Shown here: piece by piece, positions 33,650-60,913 of the stretch
Layout of the letters: each line of letters begins with the position of its first letter
Numbering within the stretch: the first letter of the stretch is position 1
DNA from: an uncultured Gammaproteobacteria bacterium
GTDB lineage: Bacteria; Patescibacteriota; Patescibacteriia; UBA1558; 2-01-FULL-52-15
Direction of reading: 5' to 3'
DNA length: 64,000 nucleotides
NCBI GenBank assembly: GCA_964540995.1
Contig: CAZIOU010000003.1
Location: forward strand, 576 to 64,575
Notes under the pieces: model-generated
The model's database searches: none
Told to the model about the DNA's origin: nothing
Seen by the model: the letters and a program-made list of their open reading frames with translations, nothing else
Made by a program: the position numbers and the translations under genes

Positions 33650-33712
33650 AAATACTCCTTTTCTTAAGGACGCTCAGCGCCTGCAAGAAGAGGAGTATTT
33701 GTTATTGACAAA
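33650..33712 (+). terminator. long imperfect hairpin terminator after hup
   Basis: AATACTCCTTTTCTT..AAGAAGAGGAGTATT followed by TGTTATTG. Confidence 0.55.
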
Positions 33713-37079: not shown

Positions 37080-37110
37080 ACACCGCCTCGATGTTTGAGA
37101 CGGTGTTGTG
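37080..37110 (-). terminator. rho-independent terminator of the serS-alr-ftsQ transcription unit
   Basis: On the minus strand: AACACCGTCTC-AAACATC-GAGGCGGTGTT followed by TCTTTTC. Confidence 0.6.
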
Positions 37111-37132
37111 GACGTTGGGCGTCCGAAGATTA

Positions 37133-39368: not shown

Positions 39369-39456
39369 CGTTAGTTATTAGTTACATGTTACTAGTTATT
39401 AGGGAAGAGCTAATGAATCAATCTGACCCTAATAACTAATACCTAATAACTGCTCG
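39369..39456. repeat. TTATTAGTTATTAGGG / CCCTAATAACTAATA inverted-repeat spacer
   Basis: Arms at 39373-39400 and 39428-39452. Related copies at 45715-45755 and 55130-55200. Confidence 0.6.
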
Positions 39457-40731
39457 CTATTTAATGACTTTCTTCCCCACAAATGGCTGTAGGACATCCG
39501 GTACAACGATCGATCCGTCCGCTTGCTGATAGTTCTCGAGGATGGCGATCAAGATACGCGGTGAGGCCACCACGGTGTTATTCAAGGTATAAGGATAGAT
39601 GTTTTCGCCCTTGTCATTCTTGTAGCGTAGATTGAGTCGGCGACTCTGCCAATCGGTCAGGAAGGATAGTGAATGAGTCTCACCGTAGGCATTGCGACTG
39701 GGCATCCAGGTTTCAATATCGTACATTTTGTATTTACCAGCACCCATATCACCGGTACAGATGTGGAGCAGACGATGTGGTAAACCAAGCTCTTGGAGTA
39801 ATTCTACTGCGTAGCCGAGCATCTCTTGGAAGTACTTCTCCCCGACTTTGAGATCAGCTTCGCAAACTACGACTTGTTCAATTTTGAAAAACTCATGTAC
39901 GCGGTACAGGCCTTTGGTATCTTTGCCATAGCTGCCAACTTCGCGGCGATAGCATTGAGAAATACCACAATACTTCAAAGGTAATTCTTTGGCTGTTAAC
40001 AGTTCATCGGCACGATAGGCTAAGAGTGAGGGTTCGCTCGTGCCGGCTAAATATTTATTTTCTTTCTCATTCTGCTCACTGGTTTCATAGATTTCTTCTC
40101 GGCCAGCAGGGAAATGTCCGCTACCGGTGAGCGCCATTTCTTTGACCATGGTTGGAGTAAACATCGGGGTGAAGCCAGCTTTGACCATTTTTTGGATAGC
40201 CAGACTGATCAAGCCCCAATGCATCAAAGCCAATTCATTTTTCAAGAAATACCCGCGGAAACCAGCAACCTTCACTCCTCGATCGAAGTCTAGTAGGTCA
40301 TGAGCCAAACCTAATTCGATGTGATCTTTGATAGGGAAATCAAAATTTTTCGGTTCACCATTTTTCTGAATCTCGACATTGCTATGTTCATCAGCACCAA
40401 CAGGCGTATCTTCAGCGTAGACATTGGGTACCAGCAGCATCAGGTTAGTGTATTCGATTTCAATTTCATCGAAATGTTTCTGCAATACTTCTAACTTCGA
40501 TTTGATCTTCTTGCCCAATTCGATTAGTTCCTGATCAGGTTTGCCCTTCTGTCCGCTAATGGTAAAAGCATTGGCCTTCTTCTCTTGATTAAGCTGTTCT
40601 ATTTGACGCATCAGGTCACTACGCTGTTCGTGCAAAGCCAAGAGACGATCTAGATCGACCTGACTATTTTTGTTCTTGATAGCCAAGAGAACTTGTTCTT
40701 TGTTGGCTTGGATGAATTTGATGTCAAGCAT
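39457..40731 (-). CDS. serS: serine--tRNA ligase
   Basis: N-terminal coiled-coil; class II motifs 'FRREVGSYGKDTKGLYRVHEF', 'GETHSLSFLTD..RR'. Confidence 0.95.
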   Translation of the reverse strand: MLDIKFIQANKEQVLLAIKNKNSQVDLDRLLALHEQRSDLMRQIEQLNQEKKANAFTISGQKGKPDQELIELGKKIKSKLEVLQKHFDEIEIEYTNLMLLVPNVYAEDTPVGADEHSNVEIQKNGEPKNFDFPIKDHIELGLAHDLLDFDRGVKVAGFRGYFLKNELALMHWGLISLAIQKMVKAGFTPMFTPTMVKEMALTGSGHFPAGREEIYETSEQNEKENKYLAGTSEPSLLAYRADELLTAKELPLKYCGISQCYRREVGSYGKDTKGLYRVHEFFKIEQVVVCEADLKVGEKYFQEMLGYAVELLQELGLPHRLLHICTGDMGAGKYKMYDIETWMPSRNAYGETHSLSFLTDWQSRRLNLRYKNDKGENIYPYTLNNTVVASPRILIAILENYQQADGSIVVPDVLQPFVGKKVIK

Positions 40732-40734
40732 AGG

Positions 40735-40798
40735 AGTCAGTATTAAGTATAGTATTAAGTATAATGTATTAAGTATGATGTATTAAGTATGATGTATG
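40735..40798. repeat. tandem repeat of about 13 bp (GTATTAAGTAT unit, about 5 copies)
   Basis: AGTATTAAGTATAGTATTAAGTATAATGTATTAAGTATGATGTATTAAGTATGATGTATG directly upstream of the serS start. Confidence 0.7.
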
Positions 40799-41170
40799 TC
40801 AGGCTTTGAGCGTTCTGATAAGACCATTGATGAGTTTATGGGTCGTTATAATTCCTTGATCAAGCAGATCATATTCGGGTTTTGTTATCTGGTTAATATC
40901 ATGACAGATATAAATTTGACTTTGAAGTTCCGTTAATGATCCGAGTGCGATAGCTAAGAGTTGAATTTTGTCTTTCTTACCCCTACGAGAAAACGATTCT
41001 GCAATATTGGAAGTGACTGATACAGTTGCACGTCGCATCTGCGATGTTAGTCCGAATCGTTCAGTGTCAGGAAAAGTCGATGTTATGCGATAAATGCGAT
41101 TTACAATTTTGGCTGCTTCTTGCCAAGCGTACAAATCTTTGAATGACGTTATCTTCTGATTGGCGCACAT
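40799..41170 (-). CDS. four-helix-bundle protein (family formerly called 23S rRNA intervening-sequence protein)
   Basis: 'FKDLYAWQEAAKIVNRIYRIT..FP..ERFGLTSQMRRATVSVTSNIAE' is typical of the family. Confidence 0.8.
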   Translation of the reverse strand: MCANQKITSFKDLYAWQEAAKIVNRIYRITSTFPDTERFGLTSQMRRATVSVTSNIAESFSRRGKKDKIQLLAIALGSLTELQSQIYICHDINQITKPEYDLLDQGIITTHKLINGLIRTLKA

Positions 41171-41216
41171 TATACTTCATACTTTCTACATAATACTATT
41201 CCCTGTTAACTAGTAA

Positions 41217-41870
41217 TTACTTAATAATAATTGACTCAATTTTGTCTCCCTGCTGAATTTTATTGACGATGTCCTGTCCAGCAGTGACTTGGCCAAAGAT
41301 GGTGTGTTTGTCATTTAACCATTCAGTTGGTACGTGAGTAATGAAAAATTGTGAACCGTTAGTAGCGGGGCCAGAATTGGCCATAGCGAGGACGCCTGGT
41401 TTATCGAAACGCAAGGCAGCGTTAAACTCATCTTCAAATTGATAACCAGGGCCGCCAGTGCCAGCGATGGGTAAGCGCTTAGGATTATTGTTGGAGTCGT
41501 AGACGAAATCTTTACCCGCTTCGCCCTTGGCTTGCGGGTCACCAGTCTGAATCATGAAATCAGCGATCACGCGATGAAAATAGATGCCGTTGTAGAATTT
41601 CTCGTTAGCTAATTTGATGAAGTTGGCTACGGCCTTGGGAGCTTCGTTACCGTACAATTCGACAGTGATGTCACCTTTGTTAGTCTTGATAGTCGCAGTA
41701 TTGGTCATGGTTGGCTTAGGCAAATTATTAGTTGGTTGATTGGTGTTGGCATTGATGGTGGCTAGTCCACCGGAAGGATTGTAGTCATCATTGGAAGTAA
41801 CTGGCTTAGATGGTGTACATCCAGTAAGCGCGATGAGCGCGATGAACGATAGTGTTAAGTATTTGTACAT
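41217..41870 (-). CDS. cyclophilin-type peptidyl-prolyl isomerase lipoprotein
   Basis: Lipobox 'ALTGCT'; '[15 protein letters not shown]', '[13 protein letters not shown]'. Confidence 0.9.
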
Positions 41871-41871
41871 G

Positions 41872-43461
41872 TTATGTAGTGACTTCTTGGAGTCGAGTTA
41901 ATAATAAGGTTCGAGGCAAAACACTCAAGAACCAACCGGCTTTAGGGCCGCTGGTAGCATTGAGGAATGATTTGTAAATTGCTTCAAATAACTCTTTGGG
42001 TTCTATGCCTTGTGTTTCTTTGATCTCGTGTAACTTGGTATGGAAATCTTGGCCATTGAGATTATCATTGGCTTGGATATAGTGCAGGATTTCGATCAGA
42101 GCTTTCTTCTGTGATGTTGTTAAGCTCCGAGCTAGTTCTGGTACCGAATCAGTAAAGATAGTGAGGCGGAATTTGTCTGGTGAATAGGTATCCAGCCAAC
42201 GCCGAGCATAATCAGCACGATAGGTGACTTCATTTTTGTCCGCTGCAGTCAAAGCCTCACCCTTCATCTTGGCGGTTTCAACTTGCAGATCAATATGTGG
42301 CATCTGTGACAAGTAAGCGATCAAGCTGAAACGCGGTAAGAATCGTGGTTGTAATTTATCAGTCTGCGAAGGTGTGTGCGTTAACAGAAATAATCGCTGA
42401 TGATCTTCATGTGATTTAGCCCAATAATCAACCGCCAAAGTATCGTAGAAGTCATAGAGAACAGGAATGGTGTCACCATCCGGTTGGAAATCAATCTCAT
42501 GCTGTGGCTTGGCGCGCAGCATCAGCAAACGAGTCATTTCAGGTGGCAGCAAATCAGAGATGTCTTTGGCGGTCGAGCCGAGGCCTTTGGACGAGGACAT
42601 TTTCTTGCCACCCACTACCAAGAAGTTATAAGGAATATCGAAAGGATTATGATAGCCGAATATTTCCTTGGCAATCAGACTCGAGACTTCGCGAGAGCCA
42701 CCTTTGGTCGCATGATCTTTGCCTGCTCCTTCGATGTCAACGCCAATAATTTTCCATTTAGCTGCCCACTCAACTTTCCATGGTAATTTACCTTTGCCGT
42801 CGAAGGGCGAAACCTTACCTTCATGGCCACAACCTTGTGCCCATTTGACTAAGTCTGGTTCACACCGATAGGTAACGACAGCGCCGTCCCAATCTATGGC
42901 TTTGGTGGTACCAATCTTCTGACACTGTTCACAAACCAATTGTACTGGCAGCCACTCCTCACCCTTGTCAGAACCAGAGACTCGTTTGTAGATGTCGCGA
43001 ATCTTCTCGGCATTATCCAGAGCCAGACGAATCGTTTCGTTAAATTTACCTTCTAAGTATAAGGTGCTAGCGCGATACAACTCTGGCTCGAAGCCGGTAG
43101 TCTTCACTACTTTGACAAATTCATCAGCCACGTATTCGGCGAAATTAGGAAAAGCTGGATCAGGCGATGGTACGTCTTTGAGGGTGCGTCCCATGTAAGG
43201 ACGATAGACTTTCTCATCTAAATAATGAGGCAGACCGTCGAATGGATCGAAATCATTAATTTCAAATAAATACCGGCTAGCAATATTTCGCTCCTTCAGT
43301 ATCTGATCAATAATACCGTGAATCACCACTCCTCTTAGAGAGCCCACATGTACTCTACCGGACATTGTCTTCTCATCGCGGATAATTAAAGGCTGACCGC
43401 TTTTAATTTTGTCGGCCAGCTTAGCTTGGATTTCGTCGACTATTTTATCGCCCCAAAACAT
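41872..43461 (-). CDS. lysK: lysine--tRNA ligase, class I
   Basis: '[12 protein letters not shown]' (archaeal-type LysRS HIGH region) and exact 'KMSSSKG'. Confidence 0.8.
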
Positions 43462-43634
43462 AAAGTAGGTTATTAGGTTGTAGTCAGGTAGTAATTAGGG
43501 AATTTTAGCTAAATTGGGCTATTTTAGCAAGGATACTTGACAAAATCATGTAAAAATGCCAATATACTCAATTACACGTGCGATCTACGCCGTGTTAGTT
43601 CCTGAACAATTTGTACTCATTGGTTGCCTAGGGG

Positions 43635-44231
43635 GTGTCAGTGGAACTTGCCAAAGCGCTGGCCTTCGTGGCCACTGGATTTCAGTTGTGGGCCTTCTGG
43701 CTCTACAACCGTAAGATGATCGTTGATCAGCAAAATCCTAACACATCGACCTGGCTTCTGTGGGCAGTACTGACGATTCTCAATTTCACCAGCTACAGCA
43801 TTGCTAGTGGTGATATCTGGAAAAGTCTCCTGCCAATGGCCACTTCTTTCGCCTGTATCGGAACTTGTATCTTCGCCCTCCGGCGAGGCAAGTTCAAGAA
43901 GTTGTCTGGTCTCACGGACATGTTAGTCATCATTGTTGGATTGACGGCGGCGATCGTCTGGAAAGTCTACCAATCTGCCGCCTTGGGGAATGTCACATTG
44001 CAATTAGCAATTGTGATTTCCTTCATACCAACCTTCCGTGATGTACTCATCAAGGATGAAAATCCACTACCCTGGTTACTCTGGGGTGTGGCCTATGCGT
44101 TCCTACTGATCGTCGTCATCCTGCGTTGGCAACATCAGCCATGGGATCTGGTATATCCCTTGGTTGGAGTCACTTTTCACCTGGCCGTTGCATTGCTAAG
44201 CAGAGCGCGCCGTAGCCAAAAGGAGCGGTAA
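43635..44231 (+). CDS. polytopic membrane protein (tandem paralog 1)
   Basis: 6-7 TM helices, GTG start after AGGGGGTG. Confidence 0.5.
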   Translation: MSVELAKALAFVATGFQLWAFWLYNRKMIVDQQNPNTSTWLLWAVLTILNFTSYSIASGDIWKSLLPMATSFACIGTCIFALRRGKFKKLSGLTDMLVIIVGLTAAIVWKVYQSAALGNVTLQLAIVISFIPTFRDVLIKDENPLPWLLWGVAYAFLLIVVILRWQHQPWDLVYPLVGVTFHLAVALLSRARRSQKER

Positions 44232-44232
44232 C

Positions 44233-44820
44233 ATGAACAGCTTTCGGCAGATCTTGTCATTGGCCTCGGCGATTGTCTTTCTGATTGCCTTCGTGCCCTA
44301 TATCGTGGCCATCGTACGCCGCCAGAGTACGCCACCGTTCTTTACTTGGGCACTGTGGGCAGCGCTCGACATCGTCACTTTGGTAGCGATGATTAGTCAG
44401 GGCGCTTCACACATTTGGCTGTTCGTAGCTGCGATCTTCGGTGCTTCCACGGTTGCGTTGCTGGCGCTGAAGTACGGCGAGCGCAGTTTTAGTCGGGTTA
44501 ACATTTCCTGCAGTGTACTCGTCACGATTGCCATCATCTGCAAGATCAGTGGCGCTGGCATGATGTCGCTGGCGGCAGGATTGGTTGGTCTGATAATCGC
44601 CGGTATCCCTATGGTCGTTAATGCGTGGAAGGACCCGACTAGCGAGGATCGGAATAGTTGGATCTTGTTCGCCATTTCCAGCTGGATGGCCATGGCAGCA
44701 GCTAACCTGGATATATTGGGTGATATGCTGCCTCCTTTGACCTTTCTTCTCATCGATTCTCTGATATTGGCTATCGTTCTTTTTCGCCCGAAACGGGCCA
44801 ACGTCATCGTGAACGTTTAA
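44233..44820 (+). CDS. polytopic membrane protein (tandem paralog 2)
   Basis: Similar topology and N-terminal pattern to the upstream gene. Confidence 0.5.
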   Translation: MNSFRQILSLASAIVFLIAFVPYIVAIVRRQSTPPFFTWALWAALDIVTLVAMISQGASHIWLFVAAIFGASTVALLALKYGERSFSRVNISCSVLVTIAIICKISGAGMMSLAAGLVGLIIAGIPMVVNAWKDPTSEDRNSWILFAISSWMAMAAANLDILGDMLPPLTFLLIDSLILAIVLFRPKRANVIVNV

Positions 44821-44834
44821 TCAAGAAATTATAC

Positions 44835-44870
44835 AGGCCTCCCTTCAAAAGGAGGCCTGTTTCTTTTTAT
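44835..44870 (+). terminator. rho-independent terminator
   Basis: CAGGCCTCC-CTTCAAAA-GGAGGCCTG followed by TTTCTTTTT. Confidence 0.75.
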
Positions 44871-44936
44871 CCACAAGTACGCTAGGGTAGCTAAGACACG
44901 GGTTCTTGTTCTTTCTACCTACTGAAATGCGGAGGT

Positions 44937-45623: not shown

Positions 45624-45624
45624 T

Positions 45625-45668
45625 GACCAAAACAGCGGGCGTTTCCACATCGTGGAAACGCCCGCTTT
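45625..45668. terminator. hairpin terminator
   Basis: AGCGGGCGTTTCCAC-ATC-GTGGAAACGCCCGCT followed by TTAAAAT. Confidence 0.7.
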
Positions 45669-45834
45669 AAAATAGAAGAAAGTAGAATGTAGAAAGAAGT
45701 AAGGGAAAGAAGCTAGAGTTTGCCCTTCCCTAATAACTAATAACGAATGACGAATATCAATTCAACCAGCTAGATTGCTTCCCTCATTGTCATGGTTCTA
45801 CAAGCTCACCATGACAATTCGGTCGCAATGACAG

Positions 45835-46641
45835 TTAGGAATGCGGATTCTGCTTACCGCGATATTTCATCCAGTATTTATAGAAACTTTTGATATGTTC
45901 ACGACTGGAGCGGTGAAAGACGCTTTGCAACACTCCATTATCGGCTGATTCACGTTTGTGATAATGAGTAAATTCAGCATCAGCCACGTACCAGACTTGA
46001 TAACCAGCTTCCCAGAAACGTCGACACCAATCAGTATCTTCGAGGTATAAGAAAAAATTCTCGTCCAAAAGACCAACTCTGATCAAAGCTTCTTTGCGTA
46101 CGATCAGTGTGGCTCCCACCAACCAATCAATGGCGCGGTTAGACCGGTGATCCCACTCGCGATAGAAATAATGATCTAACCACTTGCGGCCATAAGTAGT
46201 ATCTTTGAGTGCCGTGCGTCGGAAGAACGGTAGCAATAAGCTAGGCCAGCGCGAACAGGATTCTTGCAGTTCACCATTGGGATGTACCAGACGCGGTCCA
46301 GCGATGCCGACGTTGGTATTGCGATCCATGAAATCAACCAAACGCTCGATCTCTTCTGCTCGGCGGATGGTGATATCGGGGTTGATGATGAGAATATATT
46401 TTCCTTGGGCTCGATTGATGCCGAGATTATTACCGGCAGCGTAGCCTCGATTGGCATCGGACGTGAGGAAGGTGACGCTCGGATAGTCTGGGCCCAATTC
46501 AGCAGCTAGGTTGTCTCCAGATGCATTGTCCACGACAATAATTTCCATTTCCAATGATGGTTTGAGAGACAACAAATTCTTCAGTTGGTATTTGACCAGC
46601 TGGGCAGTCTGATAGTTGACGATGATGATGGAGAGGGTCAT
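45835..46641 (-). CDS. family-2 glycosyltransferase
   Basis: 'LSIIIVNYQ', 'VVDNASGD', 'DAEF'. Confidence 0.85.
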   Translation of the reverse strand: MTLSIIIVNYQTAQLVKYQLKNLLSLKPSLEMEIIVVDNASGDNLAAELGPDYPSVTFLTSDANRGYAAGNNLGINRAQGKYILIINPDITIRRAEEIERLVDFMDRNTNVGIAGPRLVHPNGELQESCSRWPSLLLPFFRRTALKDTTYGRKWLDHYFYREWDHRSNRAIDWLVGATLIVRKEALIRVGLLDENFFLYLEDTDWCRRFWEAGYQVWYVADAEFTHYHKRESADNGVLQSVFHRSSREHIKSFYKYWMKYRGKQNPHS

Positions 46642-46740
46642 GAAGATTGGGGCTGGGGACTCGTTACTCGCGACTCGGACGGGCGCGTCTTCCCCTAGTA
46701 GCGAGTAACGAGTACCTAGTACCCTTGTTATCTAAACCAC
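46641..46740. repeat. palindromic MITE-like element, copy A (intergenic)
   Basis: GGGGCTGGGGACTCGTTACTCGCGACTCGGACGGGCGCGTCTTCCCCTAGTAGCGAGTAACGAGTACCTAGTACC. Its reverse complement matches 52090-52215. Confidence 0.7.
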
Positions 46741-49155: not shown

Positions 49156-49156
49156 A

Positions 49157-50005: not shown

Positions 50006-50006
50006 C

Positions 50007-51194: not shown

Positions 51195-52347
51195 TAAGCT
51201 GGTTAGCCTTGGTGGTCCAATCAGGTAAGGTTTGGAGCTGATTGTAAGCGGCTTCGCCTAATTGTTGGCGCACTTCTGGATGGTCTAGTAGGTATTTCAG
51301 ATTAGCACTAATCGCTTCCAGTGAGGTGCTATCAACCAACAAACCGCTAACTTCGTGCTGCAGTATTTCTTCGGCTGAAGTATGTTGACCAGCGATGATC
51401 GGCAAGTGGAAATGAGCAGCGTCGAGATAGACGATGCCATAGCCTTCGATATCAGCACCAAGATTCAGTGTGGGTAACATGAAGATATCGGCTGCCTGAT
51501 AGTAGTTAGCAATATCCTCGTCACTGACATCAGTTAGGAAGGAAACCTGATCATTAATTTTCAGTTCGGTTGCGAGATGCTGTAAGGAAGCTAATTCTGG
51601 ACCGTTGCCAACGATGAGATAGTGACTATCATCACGACCCAAGGCATTCATCGCTTTCAACATCAGTTCATGATTCTTGCGTTTCACTAGACGACTAACA
51701 GTAAGGATGATCTGTTGGCCGACAAACTGTTGCTTGATAGCGGCGACACGCACTGGATCGGCTACCAGTCGTCCTGTCATGTACGGTGTGATCACGGTTA
51801 ATTTATTGGCCGGCAAAAGTGGCGCTACGATGGATCGGGTTGTTTCGCTGTTGACGATGACGTGATGGGCATTGGTCAGTAGACGAATGGCAGTCGTGCG
51901 ATCTTTGGCCAAAGCCAGATTGATATCCAGACCGTGTAATGACAAAACGTAGGGAAGGTTTAATTTCTTGCCGACTTTTTCCGCGATCAAGCCCAGCGGC
52001 AAAATGTGTGGTGTGAAAATAAGTTCAATCTTTTGTTGCTGACACAATTTCTTGACATTACGATAACCAGTTAGCCAGCGCGGGCGGAAGAGCTTTCCGA
52101 GAAGAGGTACTCGGTGCTCGTTACTAGGTACTCGGGAAGACGCGGGCGACCGAGTCGCGAGTAGCGAGTCGCTAGTACCGATTTGTCCGTCTCGAGCACC
52201 AAGTGACGAGTCCCCAGCCCCGCTCTTCATATCATGCGCCACAATATAATTTTGCTGTGGCAAATGTGAAAATAAACCGTAGCAATAATTGGCAATGCCG
52301 CCGCGGAAGGGGAAATATTCGTGTGTGAGGAGAAGGGTTTTTTTCAT
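51178..52347 (-). CDS. family-1 (GT4-like) glycosyltransferase carrying an in-frame insertion of repeat element B
   Basis: N-terminus 'MKKTLLLTHEYFPFRGGIANY' and C-terminus 'EGYGIVYLDAAHFHLPIIAG' are typical GT4. Residues about 42-85 (SGAGDSSLGARDGQIGTSDSLLATRSPASSRVPSNEHRVP) are low-complexity and are encoded by the element at 52090-52215. Confidence 0.8.
   Translation of the reverse strand: MKKTLLLTHEYFPFRGGIANYCYGLFSHLPQQNYIVAHDMKSGAGDSSLGARDGQIGTSDSLLATRSPASSRVPSNEHRVPLLGKLFRPRWLTGYRNVKKLCQQQKIELIFTPHILPLGLIAEKVGKKLNLPYVLSLHGLDINLALAKDRTTAIRLLTNAHHVIVNSETTRSIVAPLLPANKLTVITPYMTGRLVADPVRVAAIKQQFVGQQIILTVSRLVKRKNHELMLKAMNALGRDDSHYLIVGNGPELASLQHLATELKINDQVSFLTDVSDEDIANYYQAADIFMLPTLNLGADIEGYGIVYLDAAHFHLPIIAGQHTSAEEILQHEVSGLLVDSTSLEAISANLKYLLDHPEVRQQLGEAAYNQLQTLPDWTTKANQLNAILS
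52085..52215. repeat. palindromic MITE-like element, copy B (inside a CDS, inverted relative to A)
   Basis: GGTACTCGGTGCTCGTTACTAGGTACTCGGGAAGACGCGGGCGACCGAGTCGCGAGTAGCGAGTC...GAGTCCCCAGCCCC. Shares GAAGACGCG..CCGAGTCGCGAGTA.CGAGTC and CCCAGCCCC blocks with revcomp(A). Confidence 0.7.
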
Positions 52348-52470
52348 GGGGGTTGGGAATTGGGAATCAGGAATTAGGCGTTAGGAATTGGCAATTTGGT
52401 TTTTAGTAAATTATGGCCTCTCTGATTCCTACTGCCTAATGCCTACGGCCTAAGGAACTGGATTAATGAT

Positions 52471-53910: not shown

Positions 53911-54054
53911 ATGGGCAGTATAGCAAATTAGACTAATTTATCTAGTGTTTTGGCAAGGGGAAGATAGGGAGCTCGCAAAGGGTAATTCGTAATACGTAAT
54001 GCGTAATTACGTGCTACACCTTACGTTGTACGCCGTACGTCTTACGCTTTACGT

Positions 54055-54100
54055 CTCTAAAAAAATCCCCCCATACACGAATGTACGAGGGGATGGTTGG
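54055..54100 (-). terminator. terminator (shared motif with 55195-55243)
   Basis: Minus strand: CCATCCCCTCGTACA..TGTATGGGGGGATTTTTTTAGAGA. Confidence 0.6.
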
Positions 54101-54970: not shown

Positions 54971-55194
54971 TGATGCTCCTTAGGGTGAATCTGTATCTGG
55001 TTGTTAGATACTATTTCACCGGAAGAAGGTGCTAAGATAGGCCATTTCTGCGAGATGGCAGAACATTCCTATCAGAGCGGTGTAAATGAACTGTTGCAGT
55101 TTTACTATGGATGGAGTCATTTGTCAATCGTTATTAGTTATTAGGGTAGGTTGCCCTCTCTTCCCGAATAACGAGTAACTAATAAAAAATATCT

Positions 55195-55243
55195 CTCTTC
55201 AAAAAAATCCCCCCGCACTATGCGTACGAGGGGATGGTTATCA
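55195..55243 (-). terminator. terminator (paralogous to 54055-54100)
   Basis: Minus strand: CCATCCCCTCGTACGCATAGTGCGGGGGGATTTTTTTGAAG. Confidence 0.6.
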
Positions 55244-56089
55244 TCAGGCGACGGTTTCCGAAGGTTGCGTCGGTTCTGATGACAGCTGTTCTGCCGTGAG
55301 AGATGAACCAGGGTAGAGTCGCTTGAACTCCAATCCAGCAACTTCTTCCCATTCAGCGACTTGCTTCTGGTCACGGAATTGTGCCAAACTCTCCTCGAGT
55401 GTGCGTCTCATTGCTGCGGCATTGGGTGAGGGCTGCGTCTGCCGACCAAACTGCGCCTGACGTCTGGCCAGACACATGGCGACACCGAGACGGAAGGTGT
55501 GCTCCTGGTACTCAGACCAGTCGTCACAGGAGTTGATGATAGTTAAAGCCTCACCAACTGAGACTCTCGGTCCTCTATTACAGCGGTCTCGAAGTTCAAC
55601 CGAATCAGAGTGATACGCCGAGTAAGCTCGAATCTCTTTCCAGGAGTAATCGACGGGATTGAGCACATACGACCTTGTGTTTGACCAACCATTTGGGCGG
55701 ATAACTACGATATACTTTTTGATCTGGATCGCCGTTCCGTTGGGATTGTTGCAGTGCCAGATCTGACCGACACGGATCGGAAGCGTGACATGCAGATGTT
55801 CTACGCCTTTGGCATCTTGGAAAAGGTAGAGTTCCTGCTTGCTACTGCAAATCATAAGGATCACTGCGATGACCATACATATGAATGAAGTGGGTAGTAC
55901 GAATTGAGAGGAGTTAGGTGTTAGCTGTTGATTCTGCAATGAGTCAAATAGAGCGGCAATGAACAGTAGGATACTGATTAACCCAAAGATAATTGAGAAT
56001 TTGGCTGAATGCTTAAGCCGTTCCTCGGATTGAGAATCAGGAACTGTTACGCAATATTCACAGCCTGGTTTGTACATATTGAACCTCAC
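55244..56089 (-). CDS. membrane protein with N-terminal Cys cluster, 2 TM and a conserved C-terminal domain (tandem paralog 2)
   Basis: 'PGCEYC', two TM helices, 'LYLFQDAKGVEHLHVTLPIRVGQIWH'. Confidence 0.55.
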   Translation of the reverse strand: MRFNMYKPGCEYCVTVPDSQSEERLKHSAKFSIIFGLISILLFIAALFDSLQNQQLTPNSSQFVLPTSFICMVIAVILMICSSKQELYLFQDAKGVEHLHVTLPIRVGQIWHCNNPNGTAIQIKKYIVVIRPNGWSNTRSYVLNPVDYSWKEIRAYSAYHSDSVELRDRCNRGPRVSVGEALTIINSCDDWSEYQEHTFRLGVAMCLARRQAQFGRQTQPSPNAAAMRRTLEESLAQFRDQKQVAEWEEVAGLEFKRLYPGSSLTAEQLSSEPTQPSETVA

Positions 56090-56245
56090 GACGTCAGGCC
56101 AGATTCACCTAACGACAGAGTGCCAAGATACAGCCATCCCTATCAGTTGATTGGGCATTCCGTATCAGGGCGATGTGTAAATGAACTAGACCTACCCTAC
56201 TGATTTTCGTCTCTACCGTCAAGCCAACCTGCCTGCTGCAGCTTG

Positions 56246-56300
56246 TCGTTTCGACCGAAGTCCCGCTCGGGTGGGACGAGCAGAGAAACCTTTATTATAC
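56246..56300 (-). repeat. inverted copy of the GIY-YIG-flanking repeat
   Basis: GTCGTTTCGACC[hairpin]GAGCAGAGAAACCTTTATTATA equals revcomp of the conserved ends of 56856-56917. Confidence 0.6.
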
Positions 56301-56396
56301 TTTGGGTGGCAATACAGTATTTAGTAAAGGTTTCTCTGCTCGTTATCTTATGGATAGCTGGGAAAAGTCACAATCATAATTGGTTGCTGTGTAGTG

Positions 56397-56458
56397 TGTA
56401 ATAAAGGTTTCTCCGCTCTCTACGCCTGCGGCTTCGTTCGGTCGAAACGACAGAGCAA
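56397..56458 (+). repeat. direct repeat R1 flanking the GIY-YIG gene (3' side)
   Basis: GTGTAATAAAGGTTTCTCCGCTC[22-nt hairpin]GTCGAAACGACAGAGCA. Confidence 0.7.
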
Positions 56459-56460
56459 TA

Positions 56461-56787
56461 TTAATCTTCGCGAGGGACTATCTCCTCCCCCGTCAGAGCA
56501 AAGTCATACAAGTCGATGAATTTGGGATTATAGATTTGGATGAGTTGTAATTTTTTATTTCTGTTCCAGCGTTTGATTTGCTTCTCGCGCGCGATGGCCT
56601 CTAATGGACTACCATAATGTTGGAAGAAAAGCAGTTTGTGTGTATTGTAGTGGGCGCTAAAACTTCGAGGATTATATTTTGTCCGATGTTCATTAATTCG
56701 CCGCTCAATGTTATTCGTAATGCCCACGTAAATACAGGTATTGTATTTGTTACTAATTATATAGGTGGTGTAGATGCGATCTGGCAT
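56461..56787 (-). CDS. GIY-YIG nuclease family protein (second copy, diverged)
   Basis: 'IYTTYIISNKYNTCIYVGITNNIERRINEH'. Confidence 0.8.
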   Translation of the reverse strand: MPDRIYTTYIISNKYNTCIYVGITNNIERRINEHRTKYNPRSFSAHYNTHKLLFFQHYGSPLEAIAREKQIKRWNRNKKLQLIQIYNPKFIDLYDFALTGEEIVPRED

Positions 56788-56855
56788 TGGAGGTTAAATA
56801 AACTGTAATAATTTTTTTTGGCCTGTCTGGCTACGCAAACTTGGAGAAGTCTCGA

Positions 56856-56917
56856 TTATGTGTAATAAAGGTTTCTCCGCTCACCTCTCGCCGCGAGAGG
56901 TTTGGTCGAAACGACAG
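56856..56917 (+). repeat. direct repeat R2 flanking the GIY-YIG gene (5' side)
   Basis: TGTGTAATAAAGGTTTCTCCGCTC[ACCTCTCGCCGCGAGAGGTTTG]GTCGAAACGACAGAGCA. Ends are identical to R1; the middle hairpin differs. Confidence 0.7.
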
Positions 56918-56924
56918 AGCAGAA

Positions 56925-56960
56925 AATAAAACAAGGTATCGAATGATACCCTGTTTTTTG
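56925..56960. terminator. bidirectional terminator after rpsI
   Basis: CAAGGTATC-GAAT-GATACCCTG with A-tract 5' and T-tract 3'. Confidence 0.65.
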
Positions 56961-57018
56961 TAATATATTGTGTCTAGCGTTTCGACCATCCCCTCGGCTT
57001 TGCTCGGGGTTCCGCAAG

Positions 57019-57423
57019 CTAACGCTTGCTCCATTGAGGGGCGCGACGAGCACGTTTCAAACCTGGCTTCTTACGTTCTTTCTTGCGAGAATCGCGAGTG
57101 AGTAAACTATTTTTCTTCAAAGTAGATTTGACTGTCTCGTCCATTTTGAGTAGAGCGCGGGCAACAGCGTGACGGACAGCTTCTGATTGGGAAGATTTAC
57201 CACCACCGGAAACTTTGACGGAGATGTTCAACCGATCCTGACCCACTAGCTTCATTGGTTCGAGGATATTCTCTTGCCACTGGGCATAGGGGAAATACTG
57301 CTTCCAATCAACGTCATTGACGGTCATGGTGAAAGCCTGATCATCAGATTTGTTGATGCGTAGACGGGCAACAGCAGTTTTGCGGCGACCGACAGTGATA
57401 ATAGTGGTAGTTCGAGCAGTCAT
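57019..57423 (-). CDS. rpsI: 30S ribosomal protein S9
   Basis: C-terminal 'GLKRARRAPQWSKR'. Confidence 0.95.
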   Translation of the reverse strand: MTARTTTIITVGRRKTAVARLRINKSDDQAFTMTVNDVDWKQYFPYAQWQENILEPMKLVGQDRLNISVKVSGGGKSSQSEAVRHAVARALLKMDETVKSTLKKNSLLTRDSRKKERKKPGLKRARRAPQWSKR

Positions 57424-57433
57424 GGTTTAGAAA

Positions 57434-57835
57434 TTAGGATTTAACTTCAGTCTTAGGCTTAGGAGGGTTACCGAACGTCATGCGCTTAATACGAGCAGAC
57501 CGTAGTCGGTTCTTGGGTAACATGTCATTGACCATTTTCCACAACAACTTCTTAGGGTTCTTGAGGTTCATCTCTTTCAACGGAGTGGTGATGATACCAC
57601 CTGGGTAACCAGTATAACGATGGTAGACTTCCTTTTCTAATTTCTTACCGCTGAATTTGAGTTTGTCGATATTATAAACTTTGACCATGTCTCCCCCATC
57701 GATATGAGCTTGGTAGTCAACTTTGTGTTTACCAATTAACCAGGTAGCGATCTGGGTAGCGATACGGCCGGCGTTATTGGATGAAGCGTCGATTGTCTTG
57801 ATTTCTCGTTTGATCATATTATTGCAGATATTCAA
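57434..57835 (-). CDS. rplM: 50S ribosomal protein L13
   Basis: 'GRIATQIATWLIGKHK', 'YHRYTGYPGG'. Confidence 0.95.
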   Translation of the reverse strand: MNICNNMIKREIKTIDASSNNAGRIATQIATWLIGKHKVDYQAHIDGGDMVKVYNIDKLKFSGKKLEKEVYHRYTGYPGGIITTPLKEMNLKNPKKLLWKMVNDMLPKNRLRSARIKRMTFGNPPKPKTEVKS

Positions 57836-58172
57836 TTTGAGCTACAGTCGCGCCGTCACCTTTGCGTACTCCCAATTTGACGACACGGGTGTAGCCGCTG
57901 GTGCGGTCAGCGAAACGAGGCACATAGACTTCGATTAGTTTCTTGACAGCCTTCTTATCGAGCATGAGAGCGTTCAATTCACGTTTGGAAACTAAGGTCT
58001 TCTTCTTAGCGATAGTGATAAGTTTATCGGCCAATGGCTTGATAGCCTTAGCTTTGGCTTCGGTGGTTTTGACCTTTTCAAATAAGACTAAGCTGGTAGC
58101 CAAGCTTAAGAGAAGCGCTTTGCGAGGGGCGGCTTTGCGGTCGAGAATAACTTGTTTCTTGCGATGCTTCAT
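57819..58172 (-). CDS. rplQ: 50S ribosomal protein L17
   Basis: 'MKHRKK..L.R', 'RTSGYTRVVKLG.R.GD'. Confidence 0.95.
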   Translation of the reverse strand: MKHRKKQVILDRKAAPRKALLLSLATSLVLFEKVKTTEAKAKAIKPLADKLITIAKKKTLVSKRELNALMLDKKAVKKLIEVYVPRFADRTSGYTRVVKLGVRKGDGATVAQIEYLQ

Positions 58173-58248
58173 AATAGTTGGTAGCTTGGTAGGTTATTAG
58201 CTTAGTAGGAATGTAGGCTGGTAGATAAGTAGATTGGTAGTTGTGTAG

Positions 58249-59016
58249 CTAGGCAGTAGCTTCGGCTGATTCAGCCTCTTCTTCAGCGGCTTCAGCTTTC
58301 TTGGACTTTTTCTTAGGCTTAACTTCAACGGCTGATTGTTCTTTGATGAAGTTGAAGTGCTCGATCAAGATATCAGATGACATAGTGATAGCTTCTTCAC
58401 CGGTCATTGATCCATCGGTGGTGATAGCCATGACCAAACGTTCATAGTCAGTCTGTTGACCGACACGGACGTGTTCGATCTCGAAGCCGACATTGATAAC
58501 TGGTGAGAAAATAGCATCGATATCGATGGCTCCGATCTCGCCTTTGTGCTTGCTCTGGGTATCGACCGCTAGATAACCACGACCGCGGCTGATAGTCAAT
58601 TCCATCTCGAAGACGGCTTTCTTATCAGTCAGGGTGGCGATCACCATATCGGGGTTGGTGACTTCAGCTTGAGCGTTGGGTTTGATGTCAGCACCGGTGA
58701 CTACTTTGTCGCCTTTGGCGGACAGGGTCAAGACAACCGGCTCATCGCCATGAAGCTTAACGTTTAATTTCTTCAAATTCAAAATGATATCTACCACGTC
58801 TTCTTTGACATGGTCGATAGTCTGAAATTCATGCTGGACACCAGAGATCTTGATACTGGTGACAGCAGCGCCGGGTAGCGACGATAAGAGGACGCGTCGC
58901 AGTGAATTGCCGAGGGTGACACCGTAGCCAGGGAAACAAGGCTCAATGACTACTTCGTAGACATTGGCTTTCTTTTCCTTATAGGATACGGATTTTGGTA
59001 ATTCGATTAATCCCAT
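58249..59016 (-). CDS. rpoA: DNA-directed RNA polymerase subunit alpha, N-terminal domain only (no recognisable alpha-CTD)
   Basis: Typical alpha-NTD (255 aa) ending in an acidic tail 'KKKSKKAEAAEEEAESAEATA'. No helix-hairpin-helix CTD follows before rpsD. Confidence 0.85.
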   Translation of the reverse strand: MGLIELPKSVSYKEKKANVYEVVIEPCFPGYGVTLGNSLRRVLLSSLPGAAVTSIKISGVQHEFQTIDHVKEDVVDIILNLKKLNVKLHGDEPVVLTLSAKGDKVVTGADIKPNAQAEVTNPDMVIATLTDKKAVFEMELTISRGRGYLAVDTQSKHKGEIGAIDIDAIFSPVINVGFEIEHVRVGQQTDYERLVMAITTDGSMTGEEAITMSSDILIEHFNFIKEQSAVEVKPKKKSKKAEAAEEEAESAEATA

Positions 59017-59039
59017 GAGCGTTTATAAAAAGTTGATTA

Positions 59040-59654
59040 TTATCGTGAGTAGAACTCAACGATTGGTTTAGTATCAATGTTGGCTGGCAACTCTTCTTTC
59101 AACGGTTCGGAGGTGACGGTAATCGTCATCTTGTCCCAGTCGACGGTGAGCCAGCTAACGGTGGGCTTAGCTTTCTTCTGTTCTTCGATCAGATTCTTCC
59201 AGTAGGCAGTCTTCAATTTGGAAGTGCGGACCGTAATAGTCTGACTGATCTTGACGGAATAGGAAGGAATATCGGTTTTGATCTTATTGACGGCGACATG
59301 ACCATGAGTCACCAACTGACGAGCCAGACGACGAGTCTTGGCAAAGCCAGCGCGGTACACCACATTGTCTAAGCGCTTTTCGAGCAACTTCATCAAGTTC
59401 TCACCAGCATCACCAGTCATACCCTTGGATTTCTCGAATAGATTGGAGAATTGACGTTCAAATAAGCCGTAAATCAATTTGGCCTTCTGTTTCTCGCGCA
59501 GCTGCTTACCGTAGTCAGTGGCTTTGCGGAATCCCATCTTGGTCGGACCGTGTTGTCCTGGTGGGTAATTTCTCTTATTCCATTTCGGAGTATCGAAAAT
59601 ATCCGTTCCTTCACGGCGAGAGATTTTGACTTTGGGACCTGTGTATCTACCCAT
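59040..59654 (-). CDS. rpsD: 30S ribosomal protein S4
   Basis: 'MGRYTGPK.K.SRREG'. Confidence 0.95.
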   Translation of the reverse strand: MGRYTGPKVKISRREGTDIFDTPKWNKRNYPPGQHGPTKMGFRKATDYGKQLREKQKAKLIYGLFERQFSNLFEKSKGMTGDAGENLMKLLEKRLDNVVYRAGFAKTRRLARQLVTHGHVAVNKIKTDIPSYSVKISQTITVRTSKLKTAYWKNLIEEQKKAKPTVSWLTVDWDKMTITVTSEPLKEELPANIDTKPIVEFYSR

Positions 59655-59754
59655 AGGATTGTTAATTGATTAATTGATTCATCGACTAATTGGCTACTCC
59701 TCTATCTTCTCGCTGAATCAATTGCTCTATTATTCTATTAATCTATTAATTAAA

Positions 59755-60150
59755 TTATACTCTTCGGACTTTCTTGGGTCGGCAACCGTTGTGTGGGATA
59801 GGAGTTTGATCTTTGATAGACAAGACATCGAGGCCATGAGCGTGTAAGGCACGGACAGCCGCTTCGCGACCAGAGCCAACACCTTTGACGAAGACATCGA
59901 CTTCTTTCAAGCCATAATCTTTGACTTGATCAATAACTTTCTTGACGATCAATCCGGCAGCATACGGAGTAGGCTTCTTGGGACCTTTGAAACCAGTATT
60001 ACCGGCACTGGACCAAGCGATAACATTTCCCGCCTGATCGGTCAGGGTGACTAAGGTGTTATTGTACGTAGCTTGAACATAAGCTCGGCCACGAGTGACT
60101 GTGCGCTTCTTCTTGTTCTTCTTAGTTGTTGTCGTTGGTTTGTCTACCAT
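59755..60150 (-). CDS. rpsK: 30S ribosomal protein S11
   Basis: 'GNVIAWSSAG..GFKG.KK.TPYAA'. Confidence 0.95.
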   Translation of the reverse strand: MVDKPTTTTKKNKKKRTVTRGRAYVQATYNNTLVTLTDQAGNVIAWSSAGNTGFKGPKKPTPYAAGLIVKKVIDQVKDYGLKEVDVFVKGVGSGREAAVRALHAHGLDVLSIKDQTPIPHNGCRPKKVRRV

Positions 60151-60246
60151 GTGTTTAGTTTGTAGGTTGTAAGATAGGAATGTAGGCTGGTAGGTTGCAG
60201 AGCTAATTCTGGCTACATCCTACTACCTAATAACCTACGATCTTAA

Positions 60247-60636
60247 TTATGTTTTCTGCGCCGCTGGCTTCTTACCGCTGGTAGCGGTGTGTCGGACGTT
60301 ACCGCGGATTGTACGGGAATTGGTCTTGGTGCGTTGACCGCGGACAGGTAGGCCTTTGGCATGACGAGAGCCACGGTGGGAGCCAATTTCTTTCAAACGT
60401 TTGATATTGGTCAAGATTTCACGACGAAGATCACCTTCAACTTTGTAGGTGTCCTCAATAATACGGCGTAATTTGTTGACTTGGTCTTCGGTCAGATCTT
60501 TGACGCGAATGTTACCGTCAATATTGGTCTGAGCCAAAATCTTGACAGCGAGGGTCGGGCCAATGCCATACAGATATGGTAAAGCTGCTTCGACTCTTTT
60601 ATTATTGGGTAAATTGACGGATGCGATTCTAGCCAT
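60247..60636 (-). CDS. rpsM: 30S ribosomal protein S13
   Basis: 'MARIA.V.LP..KRVE.AL..IYGIG'. Confidence 0.95.
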
Positions 60637-60723
60637 TTGTATAATAGATTAATGGAGTAATAGATTAATTGTCCCTACTTCAGTGCTGTGCAATTAATCA
60701 ATTATTCGATGATTCAATGATAT

Positions 60724-60837
60724 TTATCCCTGTCGTTGTTTATGCTTAGGATTTTCACAGAGACAGACTACGCGTCCTTTGCGGCGGACGAGCTTACATT
60801 TCTTACACATGACTTTGACTGATGGACGTACTTTCAT
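60724..60837 (-). CDS. rpmJ: 50S ribosomal protein L36 (not in the ORF track, too short)
   Basis: Hand translation of the minus strand gives [37 protein letters not shown]. Confidence 0.85.
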
Positions 60838-60913
60838 AGGATGTAGGTTGGTAGATTGGTAGGCGGTAGGTTGGTAGATGAAATAGTCTGGCTACTTCCT
60901 ACCTCCTGACGGA

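Follow-up and report, generated by a model that had tools for sequence, protein, structure and literature searches.

Paired inverted arrays of degenerate 7–8-nucleotide units at gene junctions of a Parcubacteria genome, with G-poor arms beside many start codons

The DNA considered here – a window of 64,000 nucleotides (nt) from contig CAZIOU010000003.1 of assembly GCA_964540995.1 (positions 576 to 64,575 of the forward strand) – belongs to a bacterium of the candidate phyla radiation (CPR), a Komeilibacteria-like member of the Parcubacteria judging by its gene content and by a genome scan based on rpoA. Between 57 and 61 kb its minus strand carries the genes infA-rpmJ-rpsM-rpsK-rpsD-rpoA-rplQ-rplM-rpsI, followed further along the same strand by those for a class I lysyl-tRNA synthetase (lysK), a peptidyl-prolyl isomerase and a four-helix-bundle protein, and by serS and alr. 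An earlier note on this stretch had described G-depleted tracts of short tandem units in front of lysK, rplQ, rpsK, rpmJ, alr, serS and a glycosyltransferase gene, together with five related copies elsewhere, and had suggested that they support initiation independent of a Shine–Dalgarno (SD) sequence. All seven leaders and all five copies are indeed present. As shown here, the G-poor tracts form the downstream (3′) half of dispersed DNA elements with paired inverted arrays of degenerate 7–8-nt units.

Read on the coding strand, an element begins with an R arm (G/A/T), whose units contain TAG or TAA and whose array starts at the stop codon of the upstream gene or a few nucleotides after it; then comes a short, often purine-rich loop, frequently beginning with AAGAG or ending with CTCTT, and finally a complementary Y arm (C/A/T) that terminates at the next ATG. 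The purine-rich partners that the earlier note had placed upstream of the G-poor tracts thus do exist, and 12 of the 15 spacers of at least 40 nt between co-directional genes (36–61 kb) consist almost wholly of one such element. Since an inverted repeat reads alike on both strands, the R-first, Y-second order belongs to the element and not to its orientation, so that the G-free arm adjoins the downstream AUG whichever way the gene pair points; the minus-strand bias once ascribed to the leaders merely reflects gene orientation in that half of the window.

The units fall into at least six families that occur side by side: GTAGG/CCTAC, TTATTAG/CTAATAA, TAATTGA-TAATAGA/CAATTAATC, GTACTCG/CGAGTAC, GTATTAA/TTAATAC and CGTAA/TTACG. 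What the copies share is unit type and loop flavour and not a fixed sequence of 20–40 nt, paralogues being 61–71% identical in what are low-complexity alignments; the dispersed families D5 and D7 nevertheless tie together copies at different sites of the window. Half-elements are found as well – a Y arm alone before rplQ, lysK and an EamA-family gene, an R arm alone after dnaX – and the sites occupied include intercistronic spacers, 5′ untranslated regions (UTRs), gaps between terminator and promoter, convergent spacers and one open reading frame (ORF). When the window was scanned with Rfam, the gathering score was reached by tRNA-Gln alone, and no model matched the elements.

Tandem Repeats Finder (TRF) bears out the short tandem units, calling arrays of period 7 or 8 in each of the named tracts; 28 of 34 arrays in this lineage have one of these two periods. 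The units are imperfect, with TRF matches of 66–93% and one to three positions differing between the units of one array, and the near-identical units that define classical simple sequence repeats (SSRs) are not seen in the window arrays. Depletion of G is confined to the start-proximal arms, which contain 0–3 G per 35–76 nt, i.e. 0–8% (binomial P from 3e-6 to 4e-2 against an intergenic background of 21% G). The serS arm has a single G in 67 nt (P = 3e-6) and that of rplQ three in 76 nt (P = 3e-5), with counts of 1/39 for lysK, 1/40 for rpmJ, 1/47 for rpsK and 2/42 for the glycosyltransferase gene; the depletion is marginal for alr (3/36). The longer tracts originally reported for rpsK, rpmJ, alr and the glycosyltransferase gene take in both arms and, with 14–17% G overall, do not deserve the description.

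The long hairpins proposed in the earlier note are likewise only partly borne out. Eight of the 12 regions folded are significantly more stable than their dinucleotide shuffles (z from −2.0 to −4.8), among them alr (−4.8), 46639–46730 (−4.2), rpsM>rpsK (−3.3), rpsK>rpsD (−2.7) and the glycosyltransferase gene (−2.4), and the intercistronic stems are imperfect, at 17–32 base pairs (bp). The other regions are weak, such as infA>rpmJ (−1.5) and rpmJ>rpsM (−1.0), or unstructured, such as the rplQ leader, whose minimum free energy is −1.9 kcal/mol. The antisense strand folds more stably than the sense strand in 13 of 16 spacers, and G–U pairs number 26 in the sense folds versus 70 in the antisense folds: the former are weaker because their mismatches are A–C rather than G–U. 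This asymmetry fits selection for a modest hairpin with a C-rich arm and equally well a C-to-T mutation bias on the G-rich plus strand; as such a bias predicts the same result, the comparison was dropped as a test of RNA-level selection.

The individual copies – on the minus strand unless stated otherwise – can be followed from the ribosomal-protein genes downwards. Two of them are of the GTAGG/CCTAC type: infA>rpmJ (60838–60913), with an R arm at 60892–60908 and a Y arm at 60838–60877 ending at the rpmJ ATG, and rpsM>rpsK (60151–60246), with arms at 60213–60239 and 60151–60197 and a fold of −24.3 kcal/mol. The rpmJ>rpsM element (60637–60723) consists of TAATTG/CAATTA units with a period of 8, its R arm lying at 60691–60720 and its Y arm, at 60637–60671, having no G in 35 nt. 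In rpsK>rpsD (59655–59754), TAATAGA/TAATTGA units in the R arm (59714–59754) are followed by CAATTAATC, with the Y arm at 59655–59681. The rpoA>rplQ spacer (58173–58248), which takes up everything between the stop codon of rpoA and the ATG of rplQ, is a Y arm only, made of CTACC-type units.

Further copies lie within or next to glycosyltransferase genes. The flippase>GT4 element (52348–52470) has its R arm at 52425–52455, a long loop and a Y arm at 52348–52389; the gene that it precedes, called GT1 in the earlier note, actually encodes a GT4-family glycosyltransferase. The GT4 gene itself carries an in-frame element of the GTACTCG/CGAGTAC type at 52106–52221 (fold −52 kcal/mol), translated as about 39 low-complexity residues. 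An element of the same family with the opposite loop orientation separates two GT2 genes (46642–46727) and was recorded, at −37.5 kcal/mol, as the strongest hairpin in the window.

Two of the five related copies directly follow strong predicted terminators. An inverted array of the CGTAA/TTACG type (53980–54055) lies between the terminator at 54094–54065 and the flippase promoter at 53944–53917, and one of the TTATTAG/CTAATAA type (55123–55187; z −2.0) lies directly 3′ of the terminator at 55235–55207. Only 6 nt separate the end of the flippase promoter's −10 box from the ATG, so that the mRNA would be leaderless; going by these terminator and promoter predictions, both copies are probably not leaders. 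The idea that the elements are themselves intrinsic terminators was ruled out, as they have no T runs and the two terminator hairpins adjoining these copies are separate from them.

Two other related copies stand as repeats but not in the form originally described. That at 3243–3283 on the plus strand (reported as 3243–3292) is an R array of TAGGC/TAGGG units that starts from the dnaX stop codon and has no partner arm. The copy reported at 45700–45760 is part of a chimeric element in a convergent spacer (45675–45758, plus strand), in which a GAAAGTA-type purine arm and a CTAATAA-type arm do not pair (z −0.25). The fifth, on the plus strand at 33583–33650, is an R array of GTAGG units broken by a perfect small palindrome, GGGACAGGTC..GACCTGTCC (z −3.8).

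Upstream of lysK, the 5′ UTR (43462–43500) is wholly a Y tract, and the predicted promoter (TTGCTA-17-TAAAAT, 43530–43502) stops just before it. The serS leader (40732–40798) is a Y arm of CATACTTAATAC units (TRF period 14, 93% matches), whose partner, an R arm of GTATTA/GTATGA units, lies at 41171–41216. Enclosed between the two, as the loop of a split hairpin, is the gene for the four-helix-bundle protein (40799–41170), a member of the '23S rRNA intervening-sequence protein' family (TIGR02436/PF05635); the duplex between the arms (−24.8 kcal/mol, z −3.2) was matched by none of 300 shuffles, and the layout resembles, by analogy, that of the rRNA intervening sequences excised by RNase III. Next comes the serS>alr element (39369–39456; −27.3 kcal/mol), of the TTATTAG/CTAATAA type, with arms at 39427–39452 (R) and 39369–39404 (Y). 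At the other end of the window, a Y tract of CTTTATAC units with one G in 36 nt (4076–4111) occupies a divergent spacer and reaches the ATG of the EamA-family gene (3653–4075). The earlier list had lacked the rpmJ>rpsM, rpsK>rpsD, GT2>GT2 and EamA-gene copies, the R arm upstream of the four-helix-bundle gene and the in-frame element.

A longer dispersed family is arranged with its Y arm first (CAATAATCAA ... TTGAATATTGATTATT). It was found at 14992–15114, with further copies at approximately 22050–22230, 22345–22519 and 23284–23350; these (D1, D3, D6) share up to 67 nt at 93% identity. The family flanks wecG and gltX, and a C-poor, G/T-rich arm adjoins both start codons. Arrays of the CGAGTAC type also occur, along with three copies of a AGGTCATAGATG-like motif, in a 615-nt spacer devoid of ORFs and Rfam matches (36518–37132, minus strand), upstream of a XerC/D-like integrase gene (35561–36517).

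Some features of the window apart from the elements deserve mention. The rpoA gene (58249–59016, minus strand) encodes only 255 amino acids (aa), its family-model match spanning positions 9–251 of 320. The alpha C-terminal domain is missing here and in the related loci L001, L028, L002 and L003 (which have a short acidic tail at most), while in the more distant Parcubacteria locus L004 a helix-hairpin-helix sequence resembling this domain still follows the N-terminal domain. A 94-nt direct duplication with 97% identity (8635–8728 and 8965–9058) takes in the 5′ part of tRNA-Gln (9025–9098) and may mark a past integration at that gene. Within 56090–57018 (minus strand) lies a GIY-YIG endonuclease ORF (56461–56787), flanked by three copies of TAATAAAGGTTTCTC(C/T)GCTC; it is also present in L001, and in L028 the whole block of about 600 nt is missing – a presence/absence polymorphism of the kind typical of homing-endonuclease cassettes. 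Finally, two pairs of terminator-like hairpins, 97–98% alike, are duplicated 0.6–1.6 kb apart (61542–61581/63138–63177 and 11517–11552/12091–12126).

How genes in this lineage begin sets the background against which the tracts have to be seen. The named genes, which the earlier note had called often SD-less, all lack an SD core in the interval from −17 to −4. However, an SD core at the correct spacing is found in only 11 of 86 genes of this lineage (window, L002 and L003) and in 80 of 668 genes from other Parcubacteria loci (L004 and L039–L118), compared with 261 of 418 (62%) in non-CPR control loci fetched likewise; SD scarcity is thus genome- and phylum-wide and not particular to the repeat leaders. 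A strong and correctly spaced AAGGAG or GGAGG does precede a few genes and points to a canonical anti-SD; rRNA is absent from the window and the fetched loci. In front of several first genes, a box resembling a −10 element (TATACT or CATAAT) ends 6–8 nt ahead of the ATG (53917–53944 on the minus strand, 30754–30818, 20493–20583), and these predicted promoters suggest that leaderless mRNAs are common in this organism.

As to G content, ten of the 11 start-adjacent arrays of this lineage are G-poor on the coding strand, and at −20 to −1 G makes up 7.5% of the repeat leaders and 15.8% of the other leaders, the figure for intergenic DNA being about 21%. Folding is predicted to bring stop and start codons together: in this lineage, spacers of 74–128 nt leave 9–41 unpaired nt from stop to start, and with five other Parcubacteria spacers added, 74–158 nt leave 6–41 nt (median 19). 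The folded distance matters because the coupling of termination to reinitiation is reported to be lost at a linear spacing of around 20 nt (PMC10666635). The open tail before the AUG measures 0–23 nt, or 4–23 nt if a single fold of this lineage is set aside. With the nucleotides before the AUG unpaired in most folds, start-site masking and coupling by unmasking were rejected, and the 'hairpin control' of the earlier note finds no support in the form of a stem that hides the AUG. Initiation on C/A/U tracts without an SD is compatible with all this, without being specific to the tracts: SD scarcity is general and some copies are probably not leaders. Such initiation is plausible as a filter acting on the arm that lies beside the AUG – a translational filter favoured in this lineage by the ten G-poor arrays out of 11 and by the unpaired tails – and not as the reason why the tracts exist. 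No S1 gene lies in the window.

Relatives of the window were found by scanning one genome per species with the RpoA protein, and the closest are uncultured CPR bacteria: identity is 95% for L001, 91% for L002 (labelled Candidatus Komeilibacteria), 79% for L003 and 51% for L004, a Parcubacteria-group genome. A metagenome scan with serS produced no close relatives (best identity 57%). Wider comparison used 822 kb of other Parcubacteria loci fetched via serS and 357 kb of non-CPR controls. Among tandem repeats, period 7 is the commonest in the Parcubacteria sample (103 arrays), followed by period 8 (38), whereas periods 6 and 9 dominate the controls; under a strict test, inverted pairs of 7–8-mer arrays number 23 in the other Parcubacteria (L004 and L039–L118) and 0 in the controls. 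At least eight of 17 distinct Parcubacteria pairs fill stop-to-start spacers with gaps of at most 10 nt at both ends. Their arm order is often reversed, and their start-adjacent arrays have no G-poor polarity (C exceeds G in 21, G exceeds C in 19).

The distribution also extends to viruses. At least 120 viral contigs contain (CCTACNN)3CCTAC, versus about 0.1 expected by chance (an estimate from pattern length), and the 1.12 Mb of viral contigs that were fetched hold 11 GTAGG/CCTAC inverted pairs, all 11 with the R arm first, in contigs of 63–70% GC; the GTAGG-family hairpins read in this lineage show the same order in five of five copies. In two contigs, L303 (69% GC; 1988–2138 and 9168–9301) and L271 (61% GC; 1440–1540 and 6800–6900), elements of the form (GGCAGTA)n-loop-(CTACTGC)n and (GGAGTAG)n-loop-(CCTACTC)n lie between phage structural genes, e.g. 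those for terminase and the major head protein. The L271 copies shown are followed, downstream of the Y arm, by a normal SD, so that the architecture is neither CPR-specific nor bound to SD-less initiation. A viral scan with an AT-rich 16-mer gave single matches at chance level. The alternative already offered in the earlier note, a lineage-specific simple-repeat element, is better supported than SD-independent leaders; the repeat element itself is well founded, and its range is broader than one lineage, across Parcubacteria and phage contigs.

Comparison of orthologous junctions, together with the in-frame copy and the copies outside leaders, points to insertion at the DNA level and not to leaders built for the purpose. 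Between the flippase and GT4 genes, the window has an element of 123 nt and L028 a Y tract of 46 nt, while in L002 and L003 the stop and start codons overlap as ATGA; the window element is therefore an insertion. Conversely, the rplQ>rplM spacer is 1 nt long in the window and L028 and contains Y tracts of 37 nt in L001 and 44 nt in L002. At the in-frame site of the GT4 gene, the copy number is different in L028, a GTTGTAA ... TTACAAC family occupies the same codon in L002 (approximately 13205–13280) and the sequence is ordinary in L003; the ORF is open in every lineage compared, and the protein is 389 aa long in the window versus 382 aa in L028, a difference of 21 nt or three 7-nt units. The site of 53980–54055 carries a TTATTAG-type element in L028, with conserved flanks, and at 55123–55187 the L028 orthologue differs in its loop.

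Across L001, L002 and L003, the orthologous ribosomal-protein spacers retain the same design but are built from other unit families; by contrast, the rpsD>rpoA spacer, 23 nt without repeats, shows conservation out to L002. Within the L002 ribosomal-protein operon, paralogous TAATTG-family copies with similar loops are found in three spacers, and paralogues within one genome are 71% identical, versus 74% between orthologues. A GC-rich double mini-hairpin of 32 nt, CCACCCACAGGGTGGTCGCCCCGTGGGCGATA, recurs without change in two of these L002 elements, which have otherwise diverged; in both it stands directly after CAATTAATC (approximately 4232–4263 and 5427–5458). This speaks for copying from locus to locus or for mobile inserts nested within the elements. 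At infA>rpmJ, L028 has an unrelated TTATTAG-type allele of equal length; mobility of a cassette was ruled out there, L028 being a recombinant with L001-type sequence from about nt 147 of infA to the start of rpmJ.

Variation among strains – which diverge at 10–13% of fourfold-degenerate sites – differs from one spacer to another. Some spacers have 2 substitutions in 283 nt versus 10% at fourfold-degenerate sites; rpmJ>rpsM has 2–3 substitutions, all in the loop, and rpsK>rpsD 0–2 per 100 nt. The latter is still recognisable at 60% fourfold-site divergence, its L002 orthologue being identical in 77 of 104 aligned columns and in the final 19 nt. The rpsM>rpsK element is identical in four strains (L028, L035 and L036 among them) and remodelled by unit-scale changes in L119, while the rplQ leader shows unit-scale indels (7 mismatches and 16 gap columns) with its composition kept. 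That spacers are more conserved than synonymous sites holds for rpsK>rpsD and rpmJ>rpsM and is weakened for rpsM>rpsK. By these alignments, some copies are constrained and others SSR-like, with wholesale replacement over longer times.

The explanation we put forward, at about an even chance of being right, is that these are dispersed palindromic repeats which the genome tolerates and perhaps uses, as they fold away and leave a G-free landing site before the AUG. Units would amplify by slippage-type processes, elements or single arms would be copied or exchanged between loci, and they would settle where they do little harm – at gene junctions (including ancestral ATGA overlaps), in 5′ UTRs, in terminator–promoter gaps and in a surface loop of a glycosyltransferase. 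Once transcribed, the arms would pair and collapse a spacer of 74–128 nt to about 9–41 unpaired nt; the G-free arm beside the AUG would offer no SD mimics and pair only with its partner arm, and the open tail may then serve the SD-independent initiation that an SD-poor genome already uses. The single Y tracts of rplQ, lysK and the EamA gene would be half-elements with the same passive role. A bolder version is speculative and, in our view, unlikely: an undescribed class of self-complementary tandem heptamers in Parcubacteria and some phages would act as 'structural punctuation', holding a stop codon and the next AUG some 10–30 nt apart, with the stem perhaps cleaved in RNase III style, on the pattern of the intervening-sequence-protein gene nested in one element, so that very short G-free leaders let SD-less ribosomes tuned to leaderless mRNAs translate internal genes.

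Several observations weigh against the tolerated-repeat explanation. The weaker sense-strand folds argue against selection for a maximal mRNA hairpin, and G depletion is not required for the element class, as a G/T-rich arm stands beside the AUG in other Parcubacteria and in one family of the window. The sole allele swap that can be dissected, at infA>rpmJ, is ordinary homologous recombination and not cassette mobility. Constraint is uneven: the identity of rpsM>rpsK between strains extends over a block of 258 nt, and L119 has a remodelled form of this spacer. No gene for a Y1/RAYT or other transposase was found among the scanned ORFs of at least 100 aa in the 64-kb window, and no target-site duplication is visible between the filled window junction and the empty flippase/GT4 junctions of L002 and L003, whose flanks have diverged.

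Other explanations assign the tracts a more definite job. G-free repeat leaders such as the omega sequence of tobacco mosaic virus enhance translation in bacteria, and the C/A/U tracts might have evolved as dedicated SD-independent ribosome loading sites or enhancers, with the purine arm as a regulatory partner. Their position next to the AUG, their near-complete lack of G and of structure, the polarity of start-adjacent arrays in an SD-poor genome and the persistence of a Y tract without the R-loop part (at rplQ and the L028 GT4 junction) all fit, and the same was proposed for TAACTGA repeats before ribosomal-protein genes (MacGregor 2015, PMC4679880). The idea is nonetheless doubtful given the copies that follow terminators, occupy convergent spacers or lie within an ORF, the ATGA overlap or 1-nt spacer with which sister lineages manage at the same junctions, the opposite polarity at wecG and gltX and in other Parcubacteria, and the SD-using phage contigs with the same elements upstream of a normal SD. 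If, instead, the intercistronic hairpins were cleavage or stability sites (e.g. for RNase III) that leave units with a short G-free 5′ tail, this would account for imperfect stems of 17–32 bp exactly between cistrons, for the TIGR02436/PF05635 gene in the loop of a split stem, as in RNase III-excised intervening sequences, and for first genes of operons that look leaderless, from which it follows that ribosomes of this lineage may favour very short leaders. The sense-strand stems are, however, weakened by A–C oppositions rather than G–U pairs, some copies are Y-only, chimeric and non-pairing or outside predicted transcripts, and the window contains no RNase III gene, all of which makes such sites distinctly improbable. 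Binding sites for a factor – Rho, cold-shock proteins, S1, a CsrA-like protein or a DNA-binding regulator of iterated 7–8-mers – seem very improbable indeed: at least six unrelated unit sequences that coexist in one genome and swap at orthologous sites are hard to square with a single sequence-specific binder, and no candidate gene is linked to the elements, even though the Y tracts are Rho-site-like in composition (34% C and 4% G in the 76 nt upstream of rplQ), the repetition of units hints at multivalent binding, S1, Csp and CsrA have been named as candidates (MacGregor 2015, PMC4679880) and Nostoc work implicates heptamer repeats in promoter and translation control (bioRxiv 10.1101/2022.06.06.494920).

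Two further explanations rest on instability of the repeats. Heptamer slippage and template switching could generate inverted arrays in non-essential DNA as a mutational by-product with no effect on expression, and indeed heptamers are the commonest long SSR class in many prokaryotes (Mrazek 2007, as far as summarised in PMC4679880), strains differ by unit-scale indels, unit families turn over at orthologous sites and elements occur in every kind of non-coding context. An origin of this sort alone is improbable in view of spacers that vary far less than fourfold-degenerate sites, of rpsK>rpsD surviving such deep divergence, of a GTAGG-family arm order that is fixed across unrelated genomes and of the 10:1 polarity of start-adjacent arrays. 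Alternatively, gain or loss of 7-nt units might shift the GT4 frame or alter the spacing or stem of leaders, switching surface-polysaccharide and other genes in a form of phase or expression variation. The in-frame array in a polysaccharide-cluster glycosyltransferase, the 21-nt difference between strains and the indels in the rplQ and rpsK leaders speak for such a switch. Yet the units are degenerate, which lowers slippage rates, the frame is open in every assembled allele, and the majority of copies belong to housekeeping operons for ribosomal proteins and tRNA synthetases, which are implausible targets of on/off switching; this proposal, too, strikes us as far-fetched.

CPR bacteria, or Patescibacteria, account for much of the diversity of bacteria, and their genomes are very small and densely packed; despite this compactness, 75–125 nt are given over to each structured repeat spacer inside a core ribosomal-protein operon. 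Should the elements matter for expression, they would bear on translation start at internal cistrons of SD-poor genomes and on subunit stoichiometry after loss of stop/start overlaps; should they be merely tolerated parasites, they would point to a design rule for harmless insertion into operons – fold away and leave a G-free tail. In either case they affect the calling of start codons and ORFs in metagenome-assembled CPR genomes, serve as high-resolution strain markers and yield in-frame protein variation in a surface-polysaccharide enzyme, and the fixed arm order of GTAGG/CCTAC in unrelated high-GC phages hints at a general, undescribed mechanism.

A full-text literature search returned nothing relevant on such repeats or hairpins in CPR, Patescibacteria or Parcubacteria. 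The closest description found is that of TAACTGA heptamers, direct repeats that immediately precede start codons in Beggiatoaceae, cyanobacteria and Bacteroidetes and for which translational roles have been proposed (MacGregor 2015, PMC4679880). There, too, 7-nt tandem units end a few nucleotides from start codons, inside ribosomal-protein operons and before tRNA-synthetase genes, and SDs are rare in the repeat spacers. TAACTAA and TAACTAG units are found in the alr leader; TAACTGA itself is not a unit of the window, which uses CCTACNN, CTAATAA, CAATTAATC, CATACTT and others. The TAACTGA case involves one dominant, well-conserved unit and essentially direct repeats only, whereas the window has many degenerate families, inverted stop-to-start hairpins as a rule, copies in an ORF and after terminators, and a CPR host.

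Contiguous heptamers near start codons or promoters are also known from Nostoc (Pradhan 2022, bioRxiv 10.1101/2022.06.06.494920), which belongs to a different phylum. The window repeats are not cyanobacterial short tandemly repeated repetitive (STRR) sequences – an identity ruled out by gene content and the rpoA scan, which both indicate Komeilibacteria/Parcubacteria – and the paired inverted architecture has, as far as the literature was checked, not been reported as a rule for cyanobacterial heptamers. Tiny palindromic inserts reportedly nest in cyanobacterial repeat arrays, as Elhai is said to have described in 2008, and the identical 32-nt insert in two L002 elements recalls them.

Repetitive extragenic palindromes (REPs) and their REPIN doublets are short, dispersed, extragenic, hairpin-forming inverted repeats that are tolerated between operon genes (Bertels & Rainey 2011, PMC3116915). 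The window elements likewise are dispersed extragenic inverted doublets that fold into hairpins; their arms, however, are tandem 7–8-mer arrays without a fixed 20–40-nt sequence, and identity between copies at different sites is low. Among the scanned window ORFs of at least 100 aa, no RAYT gene was found. REPs carry a GTAG motif at their outer 5′ end, in agreement with the GTAGG...CCTAC polarity seen here.

Intercistronic RNase III hairpins occur in the early mRNA of phage T7, and RNase III-excised 23S rRNA intervening sequences carry a PF05635 ORF. The window resembles both in its long imperfect stems between cistrons, one of which encloses a PF05635/TIGR02436 gene; unlike intervening sequences, these stems lie in mRNA and not in rRNA, and many copies have no partner. 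Borg tandem repeats evolve fast and also occur in frame within ORFs, giving disordered protein regions (PMC9879509), much as the in-frame copy of the window adds a low-complexity peptide. Borg repeats are direct, archaeal and extrachromosomal, with in-ORF units that are multiples of 3 nt, whereas the inverted element of 7-nt units in the window is in frame only as a whole.

The long SSRs of prokaryotes, with units of 5–11 nt among which heptamers predominate, are mostly intergenic and sporadic across taxa (Mrazek 2007, to the extent summarised in PMC4679880). As in those repeats, the window units are arranged head to tail and vary in number between close strains; unlike the near-perfect, direct arrays of classical long SSRs, they are degenerate, form inverted pairs and run from stop to start. 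Dispersed tandem-heptamer or palindromic intergenic repeats are, then, already known in kind; what looks new is their obligatory inverted stop-to-start architecture, the number of unit families and their turnover and, for a CPR host, the copy that is read in frame.

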